12,844 bases of DNA from Candidatus Aenigmatarchaeota archaeon (GTDB lineage: Archaea; Aenigmatarchaeota; Aenigmatarchaeia; Aenigmatarchaeales; Aenigmatarchaeaceae): positions 1-12,844 of the forward strand of contig JBDRJK010000007.1 in the NCBI GenBank assembly GCA_043814985.1, read 5' to 3'. Positions 5,267 to 7,589 of this stretch are shown one piece after another. Under the pieces are notes generated by a model, which was given only the letters and a program-made list of their open reading frames with translations, ran no database searches and was not told where the DNA came from. Both the position numbers and the translations under genes were made by a program. How positions within the stretch are numbered: position 1 is the first letter of the stretch; the number at the start of each line of letters is the position of its first letter.

Positions 5267-5452
5267 TTATTTGGCACTGCCGGGTCTTTTAACGTCTATT
5301 GGTATTATACCCTTTTCAAACTCCATTTGAGCAATCTCGATTGGGTCCTTCAACTTTGTCTTGACCATTAGCGGAGCTCCCCTTGATATCTGCAGAGCCC
5401 TCGCTCCGACAATCCTTGCTTTTTCAAACCTTGTGTATACCTTTTCTAACAT
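5267..5452 (-). CDS. rpoK: DNA-directed RNA polymerase subunit K (Rpo6)
   Basis: Rpb6/RpoK signature [21 protein letters not shown]...DPIEIA..EF..G.IP. Start is ATG 5452 or 5458. Confidence 0.96.
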
Positions 5453-5466
5453 AATCATCAATCTTT

Positions 5467-5560
5467 TCTGATACAGTGTTTTCGAAATCTAAGCACATGC
5501 TGCTGTAAGGCTTTTCGATCTATCGTCTGTTGTCCTCAGCATGTCGAAATACACATCTGA
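5467..5560 (-). ncRNA. Candidate structured RNA / long hairpin upstream of rpoK
   Basis: Nested complementary arms GTGT/ACAC, TTTCGA/TCGAAA, ACATGCTG/CAGCATGT, AGG/CCT. Strand assignment is inferred from the flanking genes. Confidence 0.4.
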
Positions 5561-5574
5561 ATAAAATTCTATAA

Positions 5575-5664
5575 CTAACCGAATCTCCTTTTGATAAGTT
5601 CCTCTTCTGACCATTCCCTATGCTTATTCAGGGATATCTCCCTTTTTACGAATGTATTAACCAA
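5575..5664 (-). CDS. 29-aa microprotein, copy A, MVNTFVKREISLNKHREWSEEELIKRRFG (not in ORF track)
   Basis: GGTGA SD 5 nt before TTG. 20/29 identical to the paralog at 7330-7419. Confidence 0.8.
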   Translation of the reverse strand: MVNTFVKREISLNKHREWSEEELIKRRFG

Positions 5665-5815
5665 ATTAATCACCCTTAACTCTTCTTAATACCTCAAAGT
5701 TTAGAATAAGAAACAAAATACGATTTCTTATAACTTCAAGTATCTCCTTATAATAAATATGGCGTTCTAACTACTTAAAGCAGTTACTACTGTTTTATAA
5801 TAAAAATTATCAATA

Positions 5816-5834
5816 TAGAAAAACCGGGATTTAA
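5816..5834. repeat. Junction motif copy TAGAAAAACCGGGATTTAA
   Basis: Contains the TAA stop of ORF 5831-6061. Confidence 0.8.
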
Positions 5835-6061
5835 GGATTATTCTTCTTTTCCAATTTCGCAACCCTTCTTTCCAATTCCAGCATATTCTTGCCTAGAATT
5901 TCTATAAGTTCCGCCAATTGAATGTCCCTGTCTTCAGATTTCTTATCCTTAGCACTTTCTCGAGTGTCATGATTCTGCTCTTTGTCCTTTTGCTCCTTTA
6001 GTAACTTTAAGAGTTCATTCAGCCTTTGCTGCGGGGCAACATGCTCCCAGATGTCAGCCAT
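5831..6061 (-). CDS. Hypothetical coiled-coil protein, 76 aa
   Basis: Flanked on both sides by the junction motif. TATA at 6090 is 29 nt upstream. Zipper-like LERRVAKLE. Confidence 0.8.
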   Translation of the reverse strand: MADIWEHVAPQQRLNELLKLLKEQKDKEQNHDTRESAKDKKSEDRDIQLAELIEILGKNMLELERRVAKLEKKNNP

Positions 6062-6071
6062 ACTAAATATA

Positions 6072-6090
6072 TAGAAAAACTAAGATTTAA
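6072..6090. repeat. Junction motif copy TAGAAAAACTAAGATTTAA
   Basis: Occupies the promoter position of ORF 5831-6061. Confidence 0.8.
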
Positions 6091-6129
6091 GATTAAACGT
6101 ACCAAAGACCCGAAACAATTTGCCTGTAA

Positions 6130-6243
6130 TCAGGGATCGTATGCGGTGCCGCATGCCTGGCATATCAAAGCACCGGCCTTCTCGTCCCATTTGAGAACAT
6201 TGTTGAATACCCTGCACCTGCTGCAGCATATCTCCTGAACCAT
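6130..6243 (-). CDS. Stand-alone TFIIB-type zinc-ribbon microprotein, 37 aa (not in ORF track)
   Basis: MVQEICCSRCRVFNNVLKWDEKAGALICQACGTAYDP has the CxxC...D..xG.lxCxxCG pattern. TTTTAT box 28 nt upstream. Confidence 0.75.
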   Translation of the reverse strand: MVQEICCSRCRVFNNVLKWDEKAGALICQACGTAYDP

Positions 6244-6360
6244 TCTAAAAGTTCGGTAGGAAAGGATAAAAGTCTTTTCAGATAATTCAAAAAAATCGTC
6301 TCCTGACGTAGGTGCTATAAAGGCTTAAGAAACTTTCCCTTCAAAAATATTGAAGCCCTT

Positions 6361-6546
6361 CTATTCCTCTATGAAGAAATCGTCCTTCTCGTAGGAATAC
6401 CTGAAATTTGTCCTTAGGTTCATGTCCTTTATCATCCCATTCTCCCAGAACACCATTAATTTACCGTTGAACCTGTCCCTCTTCAGCTTGTCCAGCGCTT
6501 CCTTGGAGAACAATGAGTTAACTTTCTTCCTTTTCATAGAGACCAA
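6361..6546 (-). CDS. Hypothetical protein, 58-61 aa
   Basis: Compact ORF with FNGKLMVFWENG hairpin-like segment. TTG 6546 or ATG 6537 start, TATA-like TTTAAC near 6572. Confidence 0.65.
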   Translation of the reverse strand: MVSMKRKKVNSLFSKEALDKLKRDRFNGKLMVFWENGMIKDMNLRTNFRYSYEKDDFFIEE

Positions 6547-6685
6547 TACTAAAATTCATCTGAATAGTTAAATTGATTTGTCGGCTTGAACACGAGAATT
6601 AGAAAATAACCTCTGCTAAATCAATATCTTGTTCCATATTTTCCGGAAATAGAAAAAATAAAAACTTTCAACCAGAACTATCCTT

Positions 6686-7318
6686 ATGAAGATTGATTCT
6701 AAGGGCAACTCCTGGATAGCAATATCAGAATTCCACCAGCAGTCCTACTGCGAGGTCCAATTAGAGTTCAAGTGGAAGGGAATAAGAATAGAGACAGACG
6801 CAATGAAGAAGGGGACAGCCGTCCACGACCAAAAATTCAAGACATTTGAAGAAAAGACAAAGGGATTAGAAGAAGTGGATATAGTTAATGCAATAAAGCT
6901 GGCTGTGGAAAAGGATGAAAGATTCTCAGGAAGGGAAGTCTTCGTGATATCACCAACATTCAGGATTTTCGGAGTCATTGATTCGATAGAGATAGGGCCA
7001 AATGGCATAATGATAGCTGACGACAAGCCCTCCAAGTATGCCTACCTGTCAGAAAAGTCCCAGGTATTAGGCTATGCAATTGCCTTCAAGGACAAATACA
7101 GGCCTCCAGTTGACATCTTCATCTCGATCAAGAACAGGGACACTGGAGACATAGTCTGGGAGGACGTGTTAACTCAGGAATGGGTCGATTTCATGATGGA
7201 AAAGATTAATAGATTGCATGAACTGGCATTAGGCAAGCGCGAATTTGAACCGACCAAGAATCCCAAGAAGTGTTTGGCCTGTTCTTACAAAAAATTATGC
7301 AAGAAGAAAGTATGCTGA
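6686..7318 (+). CDS. cas4: Solo Cas4-like PD-(D/E)XK nuclease with Fe-S staple cysteines
   Basis: N-terminal YC, GTAVH, E...GVID...DDK, QVLGY and C-terminal CLACSYKKLC. No cas1/cas2 or CRISPR array in the window. Confidence 0.85.
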   Translation: MKIDSKGNSWIAISEFHQQSYCEVQLEFKWKGIRIETDAMKKGTAVHDQKFKTFEEKTKGLEEVDIVNAIKLAVEKDERFSGREVFVISPTFRIFGVIDSIEIGPNGIMIADDKPSKYAYLSEKSQVLGYAIAFKDKYRPPVDIFISIKNRDTGDIVWEDVLTQEWVDFMMEKINRLHELALGKREFEPTKNPKKCLACSYKKLCKKKVC

Positions 7319-7329
7319 AAATAAAAAAG

Positions 7330-7419
7330 CTAACCAAACCTTCTTTTAACCAAGTCTTCCTCTAACCAATCCTTATGCTTCTTCAAAGACTGCTCCCTTA
7401 CCACAAAACAATTAACCAA
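7330..7419 (-). CDS. 29-aa microprotein, copy B, MVNCFVVREQSLKKHKDWLEEDLVKRRFG (not in ORF track)
   Basis: GGTGA SD 5 nt before TTG, with an alternative in-frame ATG at 7425. Paralog of 5575-5664 with the same length and TAG stop. Confidence 0.8.
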   Translation of the reverse strand: MVNCFVVREQSLKKHKDWLEEDLVKRRFG

Positions 7420-7589
7420 ACTCATCACCTACCATTTTTTTATACAAAACATTTCAAGCTTCAGAACAAGCCTAAAAATATTTGTCGAGTATATTATTAT
7501 TGGGTGTCTAGGCATATATAGTACTCTTTTTTGAGAGTTATTTGTTTGGTATACAAGAGAATTAAACACAATTTCAAAAAGAAATTTTA

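Follow-up and report, generated by a model that had tools for sequence, protein, structure and literature searches.

The window analysed here, a 12,844-nt stretch of archaeal DNA that makes up the whole of contig C7 of a Candidatus Aenigmatarchaeota genome (G000), carries on its minus strand two very short genes, A and B, which almost certainly encode proteins and belong to one microprotein family. We consider it probable, on the whole, that A and B are two translated paralogues of a lineage-restricted family, and that each is carried by a small expression unit of its own; the product may be a helical docking peptide. The first-pass annotation of the window had described the two open reading frames (ORFs) as members of an unannotated family under selection at the protein level, possibly regulatory or linked to a Cas4-like nuclease or to RNA polymerase. 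The family and the selection held up in our analysis, with no match to a described family in Pfam, NCBIfam or PDB; the proposed links to neighbouring genes fared less well and are considered below.

Coding evidence for genes A and B

Translation of the minus strand gave products of 29 residues for A (LVNTFVKREISLNKHREWSEEELIKRRFG, with the stop as an asterisk; also given as MVNTFVKREISLNKHREWSEEELIKRRFG) and for B (LVNCFVVREQSLKKHKDWLEEDLVKRRFG, likewise with the stop; also given as MVNCFVVREQSLKKHKDWLEEDLVKRRFG), which were identical at 20 of 29 positions in an ungapped alignment. Both ORFs start with TTG, five nucleotides behind a GGTGA, and end with TAG, and the pair as first described was confirmed by translation and by tblastn. 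When the whole 808-kb genome (807,958 bases in 21 contigs, 91% complete) was searched with A as the query, B was found at E = 9e-11 and the next match at only E = 0.1, which places the likeness of A and B far beyond chance; with nothing else scoring better than E = 0.1, A and B are the only two copies to be detected in the genome. At ten of the 29 codons A and B differed by synonymous changes only, and Nei-Gojobori counting gave a proportion of synonymous differences (pS) of 0.78 and of nonsynonymous differences (pN) of 0.20, which argues for selection at the level of the protein, as had been proposed.

The start model was compared across 15 copies from related genomes and 60 distinct metagenome copies; the latter were collected with a degenerate DNA pattern for G-N-V-F-V-M-R-E/Q-K, which gave 63 loci before identical units were collapsed. 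A start codon stood at the proposed position in all 75 copies (TTG in 10, ATG in four and GTG in one of the genomic copies; ATG in 31, TTG in 25 and GTG in four of the metagenome copies), and a non-start leucine codon was never found there. Since a free leucine would also use CTN or TTA, this position appears to be under start-codon constraint, and the GGTGA-N5-TTG start of the first description is well borne out.

Wobble bases at positions that the search pattern left free were mixed in the 60 metagenome copies, with AAT in 34 and AAC in 26, TTT in 32 and TTC in 28, GTN in all four ways, AGG in 35, AGA in 24 and CGG in one, and AAG in 37 and AAA in 23. Codon 12, which lies outside the pattern, specified leucine in every one of them (TTG 30, TTA 29, CTG 1), and all 60 ORFs closed after 24-32 codons. 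Start codons, frame closure, wobble mixing and the leucine at codon 12 all fit selection on the peptide, and, judged from these sequence comparisons, it is the peptide and not the RNA sequence on which selection acts.

Contigs from four public DNA runs (n = 4, compared as contigs) indicated that the organism or near relatives were present in them. In two of these runs, each with one contig of low depth, a variant of B was seen at window positions 7392-7393, with a synonymous change in codon 9 (E9) together with Q10E.

A lineage-restricted microprotein family

A profile made from just A and B, the check that the first-pass annotation had suggested, already recovered copies in related genomes, and its iteration led to 15 copies in 9 of the 371 genomes of the class (E <= 0.001), all of them in three genera of one family. 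Among 1.84 billion representative proteins the profile had 23 matches at E <= 1e-3. These representatives were 26-74 aa long, with the motif C-terminal in the ORF as called, from which it follows that gene callers chose upstream starts; no long protein with the motif was among them. Public relatives are unnamed or listed as 'hypothetical protein', and A and B themselves, as 32-residue forms with a GTG start, were missing from a collection that comprises some 15 billion predicted proteins.

Neither A nor B had a match in Pfam or NCBIfam at E <= 10, nor did a profile of 64 sequences have one in PDB at the same limit, and a single relative showed a sub-threshold match to Pcf11_helical (E = 0.0028, 17.8 bits vs a cut-off of 27). 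Two queries were put to the ESM Atlas, the first returning unnamed clusters at 0.85-0.86, below the level that counts, and the second no usable match. In the titles and the opening parts of abstracts of the literature on archaeal and DPANN small proteins and on Aenigmarchaeota small ORFs, no such family was found. As far as these searches reach, the microprotein family appears to be new, together with its leader, its pair of paralogues and its partner microproteins, while a conserved unannotated microprotein gene is in itself a known kind of thing.

The members are 24-33 residues long. Their N-terminal 12 residues are nearly invariant (consensus M-G-N-V-F-V-M-R-E/Q-K-F-L, to be compared with MVNTFVKREISL and MVNCFVVREQSL in the window), and the tail is variable and rich in Glu, Lys and Arg. 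In 64 aligned sequences N3, F5, V6 and R8 were invariant and L12 nearly so. AlphaFold2, run with these 64 sequences, predicted helices at residues 4-20 and 23-31 of the 32-residue form, with a mean predicted local distance difference test score (pLDDT) of 86.

Genes so short are routinely missed or left unnamed, and the pair offers a clean case in which comparative sequence alone marks a 29-codon frame as a real gene with 12 strongly constrained residues. The hosts, very small, symbiotic and uncultured archaea, have genomes of some 0.8 Mb, in which each retained gene is likely to matter; handles for the study of microproteins in such reduced cells come from the leader element, the partner microprotein and the operon with rpoK that part of the lineage has (described below).

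Two loci with different putative promoters and leaders

Two copies were present in six of the nine family-bearing genomes, and six long metagenome contigs each carried two different copies, 1.4 to 23 kb apart. By their upstream regions the copies form two types, E-type (MREKFL) and Q-type (MRQKFLD). Upstream of the E-type copies, which stand alone, we observed in order a CTATATATG(C/T)C box, about 16 bases further on CCAATAATAAAG(G/A)AATACTT, a hairpin of the form GGCUU-RUUCUN-AAGCU, an A-rich stretch and GGTGAT. The Q-type copies are preceded by a GCTTTAAGTAGTT box or another promoter and by a hairpin such as GGUAGCC-UUUGUUUCUUCA-GGCUACC, in which changes in the stem compensate between copies, and behind them there is often a second tiny gene. 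On the usual archaeal TATA spacing, the AT-rich box is predicted to be a TATA box and the transcript to start in the AATAATAAAG box, which would leave a leader of about 70 nt, near the length of the ORF.

The flanks of A and B, which had been described as dissimilar, are not entirely so: in some 100 nt upstream of both genes short conserved blocks are shared, namely a AATAATAA/ATAC box, CTT(A/G)TTCT(A/G)AA and the Shine-Dalgarno sequence GGTGAT. Gene A has a CTGCTTTAAGTAGTTAGAACGCC box that also stands before the orthologues of A in G001 and in G003 and before several Q-type copies from metagenomes, and the block that contains this box is probably its promoter. Over some 125 nt the promoter and leader of B were about 90% identical to those of the copy in G002, with a sharp onset at the TATA-like box, and both promoter boxes of B also precede most E-type copies. 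Runs of T follow the stop codon in several copies (B, G002, G001_b and G003_b). The positions of these elements in the window are listed in Table 1.

Table 1. Positions of the genes and putative signals in the window, followed by examples of associated genes at other loci
Feature	Position	Strand	Description
rpoK	5267..5458	-	RNA polymerase subunit Rpo6/K; PF01192, E = 2.6e-11; co-directional with A
Element X	5478..5572	-	spacer between A and rpoK, 95 nt, 82% identical to the same place in G001
Microprotein gene A	5575..5664	-	29 codons + TAG; TTG start at 5662-5664; positional orthologue of Q-locus copies; first gene of the A-rpoK unit
Shine-Dalgarno sequence of A	5670..5674	-	GGTGA (GGTGAT), 5 nt before TTG; GGTGAT or a close variant equally spaced in most family copies shown
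Leader motif of A	5700..5710	-	CTTATTCTAAA; family-wide motif CTT(A/G)TTCT(A/G)AA of the 5' untranslated region (UTR)
Promoter-proximal conserved block of A	5738..5783	-	CTGCTTTAAGTAGTTAGAACGCC box 5761-5783; AT-rich, TATA-like ATATTTATTATAAGG 5746-5760; AGATACTT 5738-5745
Coiled-coil ORF	5831-6061	-	76 aa
Zinc-ribbon ORF	6130-6243	-	37 aa, four cysteines; weak Trm112p-like (E = 1e-4) and TFIIB zinc-ribbon (E = 2e-3) matches
Small ORF	6361-6546		61 aa
Cas4-like PD-(D/E)XK nuclease gene	6686..7318	+	PF01930, E = 3.5e-9; convergent with B; context only
T-rich run	7319..7329	-	CTTTTTTATTT, directly after the stop of B; likely archaeal oligo-T terminator
Microprotein gene B	7330..7419	-	29 codons + TAG; TTG start at 7417-7419; stand-alone unit at the E locus
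Shine-Dalgarno sequence of B	7425..7429	-	GGTGA, 5 nt before TTG
5' UTR hairpin of B	7456..7473	-	AGGCUU-GUUCUG-AAGCUU; loop carries the leader motif; kept in minimum-free-energy and centroid folds
Conserved promoter region of B	7489..7521	-	TATA-like CTATATATGCC 7511-7521; CCCAATAATAATATAC 7489-7504, likely transcript start
Arginine-rich microprotein, examples	L024:6328-6417, L025:1359-1445, L026:8390-8476, L027:5587-5676, L054:1415-1480, L043:493-567, L022:7795-7860
Third microprotein, examples	L108:3042-3158, L062:2828-2980, L093:540-716 and seven similar loci
Topoisomerase IB gene, examples	L023:3241-4728, L026:188-1687 and five metagenome loci

The stem of the E-type leader appears plausible, with moderate support from sequence comparison. 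In 21 distinct leaders 79.4% of the cells could pair, in comparison to 70.3% in shuffles, and the covariation score was 0.268 vs 0.147, with one of 500 shuffles as high; the rows had been picked by the presence of the loop motif, and only the stem columns are informative in these figures. The pyrimidine-rich motif CUU(A/G)UUCU(G/A)AA itself is, by comparison of the copies, the best-conserved non-coding feature. Within G000 only A and B are preceded by the motif in a matching context, which rules it out as the signal of a regulon. Three further readings of the leader were dropped: a box C/D or K-turn element in CUGA...GUGAUGA of the B leader, the UGAUGA-like part of which is not kept in other copies; pairing of the motif with codons 12-14, which fits A only; and pairing of the loop with the Shine-Dalgarno region, which fits some Q-type leaders only. 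A search of Rfam gave no match at the gathering threshold over the whole window and none at E <= 1 between positions 5300 and 7650. A scan with sigma-70 promoter and intrinsic-terminator models, which are not suited to archaea, returned nothing useful.

Probable gene conversion between the two loci

The two window copies differ in their upstream regions and resemble each other in their coding parts. Gene A has the Q-type upstream box and lies at the place of the Q-type copies of G001 and G003, and B has an E-type promoter and leader. The coding tails of A, B and the G002 copy are alike (..H.(E/D)W.EE(E/D)L(I/V)(K/R)RRFG), and those of the E-locus copies of G001 and G003 are quite different from them. 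The G002 copy is a mosaic, B-like in the 125 nt upstream and in the first 18 nt of the ORF (through codon 6) and A-like in its 3' part. We therefore think it rather likely that the coding region of the E locus was converted by the Q-locus copy in an ancestor of G000 and G002, and this proposed event would account for similar ORFs in dissimilar flanks. The alternative is an independent duplication of the ORF only.

Neighbouring microproteins and the proposed role

Directly downstream of many family copies we found a second microprotein gene, of 22-30 codons, whose product is arginine-rich with an acidic end (M..PPNW(R/K)RR..). A motif scan placed it directly behind 6 of the 15 genomic copies, and the ORF listing of G001 added a seventh locus. 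Among metagenome copies with enough flank it followed at least 11 of 31 Q-type and at least 1 of 26 E-type copies, these counts being lower bounds, since the motif was sought no further than 130 nt away. With a profile of the arginine-rich protein, matches were obtained in 6 of the 371 genomes of the class; all six carry the microprotein family, and the match always adjoined one of its copies. In one group of loci a third microprotein of about 39 aa (MTGN..NGNKW.DE.Y.K.TG.SNKGHIFKK) ends 7-16 nt before the start of the family copy and forms with it a three-gene micro-operon, the leader of which again contains the leader motif. Neither gene had a match in Pfam or NCBIfam, and neither was found in the window's genome, which is 91% complete.

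In the model that we favour, each gene of the family would be a complete small expression unit with a TATA-like box, a leader of about 70 nt with a stem-loop, GGTGAT and an NTG start, to which B would add an oligo-T terminator. The E locus stands alone. At the Q locus the family gene usually has the arginine-rich microprotein (M..PPNWRRR..) behind it, and rpoK follows in some lineages; in G000, A occupies the Q locus, in an operon with rpoK, and B the E locus. The product would be a peptide of two helices. Its N-terminal helix, conserved and amphipathic, would dock onto a conserved partner in the cell, with the charged tail modulating the binding and the arginine-rich neighbour as the usual partner of the microprotein. 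The leader hints at post-transcriptional control, possibly in the form of feedback.

What the peptide docks onto can be proposed only tentatively. To judge from the arginine-rich neighbour, RNA or machinery bound to nucleic acid is suggested, and the peptide might serve the gene-expression machinery (RNA polymerase, ribosome or RNA) as a docking subunit or regulator, a role that we hold to be possible and, on the whole, doubtful, and to which we still give more weight than to any single rival. A more specific version appears unlikely: here the family, the arginine-rich protein and the 39-residue neighbour would make up a lineage-specific, co-regulated nucleic-acid-binding module. Its members would be additional subunits of RNA polymerase (via Rpo6/K) or the ribosome, or would regulate one of these, and the peptides would control their own synthesis at the shared leader stem-loop.

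Several observations weigh against this model or narrow it. The case for function consists entirely of gene neighbourhood and composition. Neighbourhoods are mostly variable, and the recurrent neighbours (a treble-clef zinc-finger protein, a eukaryote-type topoisomerase IB, an AsnC regulator, a SHOCT protein, the Cas4-like protein, rpoK and uncharacterised proteins) form no pattern that would name a pathway. In the metagenomes rpoK was behind 2 of the 26 Q-type loci that had 500 nt or more of sequence on the downstream side, and behind none of 24 E-type loci. The conservation of codons 2-10 in the metagenome copies is a product of the search pattern and cannot be counted. Between A and its positional orthologue G001_a, the ratio of nonsynonymous to synonymous substitution rates (dN/dS) was about 0.94 over 28 codons, which suggests almost no constraint on the tail of the Q-locus copy within this genus. 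The family turned up in 3 of the 12 genera of its own taxonomic family, and the lineage can thus do without it, unless the profile misses divergent copies. As to the leader, three A-type leaders pair in another register than the E-type hairpin, and the fold z-scores of the whole transcripts (-0.87 and -0.71) are ordinary.

The rpoK locus and possible upstream regulation

A link to RNA polymerase had been suggested for the pair, and in this genus it is borne out for A: the copy A or its positional orthologue lies upstream of rpoK in all three species in which the locus was found (G000, G001 and G003). Among the metagenomes the link was limited, with the 2 of 26 Q-type loci mentioned above. In G003 the microprotein gene, the arginine-rich gene and rpoK are arranged back to back; in G001 the order is the microprotein gene, a 27-codon frame, a 37-codon frame, the arginine-rich gene and rpoK. 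Judged from gene order, the operon of A and rpoK is real in this genus, limited to part of the lineage and not a feature of the whole family. Co-folding of RpoK (63 aa) with the microprotein (29 aa) gave, from an alignment of 15 rows, a score of 0.02 vs a mark of 0.32, which speaks neither for nor against binding.

This arrangement bears on another explanation, according to which the ORFs are regulatory upstream ORFs, that is, leader peptides that control a downstream gene (rpoK in the case of A), the peptide itself being functionless. We consider it improbable. It would agree with the position of A, 116 nt upstream of rpoK on the same strand with its orthologues placed likewise, with the cold-shock-domain gene that the G002 copy precedes, and with the long, conserved leaders. 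However, a co-directional gene behind the ORF is a property of A-type copies only, and other genes follow from one locus to the next; B and, among the E-type copies with neighbourhoods that were read, many (e.g. G008_a, L060, L064 and L100) have no such gene behind them and face a convergent one, and the T-runs after B and the copies G002, G001_b and G003_b also stand against it. Moreover, the N-terminus is conserved and the distance to the stop varies (24-33 codons), the opposite of what is seen in stalling peptides, and runs of regulatory codons were absent.

In G002 the cold-shock-domain gene (L021:2160-2468, minus strand) is on the same strand as the microprotein gene and 133 nt downstream of it, and the microprotein gene does not face Cas4 there.

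The spacer between A and rpoK, element X, was better conserved between G000 and G001 than the microprotein itself and was found only in these two among 21 genomes of the family. In G001 this region holds a 27-codon frame that starts with ATG, and the window has no ATG there; the fold z-score of the element (-0.92) was unremarkable. Element X may encode a short ORF or act as an RNA.

The Cas4-like gene and other neighbours

The first-pass annotation had placed a coiled-coil ORF, a zinc ribbon, a small ORF and a Cas4-like nuclease gene between A and B, and we found these genes as described. It is very improbable, however, that the microproteins are Cas4-linked or defence accessories that regulate or work with the solo Cas4-like nuclease. 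In favour of such a link stand the 11 nt that separate the stop of B from that of the Cas4-like gene, as well as G008 and three metagenome loci, in which no more than 3.2 kb lies between a Cas4-like gene and a copy. Since the two genes are convergent, the Cas4-like gene and B should not be co-transcribed, and within the fetched flanks of 3 kb on either side a Cas4-like gene was present at 3 of 26 E-type and at none of 34 Q-type metagenome loci. The Cas4-like gene was conserved in all five family-bearing relatives searched, as a single copy 67-88% identical, and never adjoined a microprotein gene, with distances of 3.1 kb in G008, 9 kb in G001, 10 kb in G017 and 16 kb in G003, and a location on another contig in G002. 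The suggested link to Cas4 is thus not upheld as a general rule; the proximity looks like loose synteny within one chromosomal region and not like a module, with the adjacency in the window incidental, and it would be wrong to take the apparent 'bracketing' of Cas4 for a new CRISPR-related module.

Comparison with known systems

Stand-alone microproteins have reportedly been described in Methanosarcina mazei (sP26, 23 aa, which is said to bind glutamine synthetase) and in Bacillus subtilis (MciZ and SpoVM). The family resembles these in having a tiny gene of its own with a promoter and a ribosome-binding site, and a helical product of 20-40 residues that presumably docks on a larger protein. 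In contrast to them, it comprises two paralogues, a conserved structured leader and often an arginine-rich microprotein in the same operon, and it shows no similarity to described families. Type I toxin genes are likewise very short, have a long conserved 5' UTR that contains a stem-loop, and occur in several copies and variable neighbourhoods; unlike them, the present genes encode a hydrophilic, charged peptide with no membrane-spanning stretch and with two soluble helices predicted, and their paralogue loci are fixed across genera. An antisense RNA gene was likewise not identified, the search being one of Rfam. As a rule, archaeal rpoK (Rpo6) shares a transcript with genes for ribosomal proteins. 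As in these usual neighbourhoods, very small genes for basic or charged proteins precede rpoK here in one direction of transcription, but the preceding genes match no known ribosomal protein, and only part of one family has this gene order.

A closer formal likeness is to the precursors of ribosomally synthesised and post-translationally modified peptides, with an N-terminal leader and a hypervariable C-terminal core, and one may ask whether A and B encode precursors of modified or exported peptides. The invariant N-terminal 12 residues, the variable tail and the several paralogues per genome are what such a precursor would show, yet no gene for a modifying enzyme, a protease or a transporter recurs beside the copies, and the tails, rich in Glu, Lys and Arg, lack a double-glycine site and show hardly any pattern of Cys, Ser or Thr, a composition unlike that of known cores. 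In addition, the conserved part begins at residue 1 and is predicted to be helical, and the genomes are only about 0.8 Mb in size; we give this explanation very little chance. Finally, the idea that the frames are fortuitous within a non-coding RNA or a cis-acting DNA or RNA element, to which one could count the 125 nt upstream that are better conserved between B and G002 than the synonymous sites of the ORF and a leader hairpin with some covariation, is close to refuted by the 75 start codons in 75 copies, free wobble beside fixed amino acids, the conserved frame length, the lack of an Rfam match even at E <= 1 and the ordinary fold z-scores.

Further observations in the region

The 76-aa coiled-coil ORF has a homologue with 75% identity on the locus L080, about 750 nt downstream of a Q-type copy, and on this ground it is probably a real gene and part of a conserved region. 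The 37-aa zinc-ribbon ORF is overlapped in another frame by a frame of 49 aa. Several relatives have, no more than a few kb away from the E-type locus, a gene for a eukaryote-type DNA topoisomerase IB in which all three Pfam domains are present.

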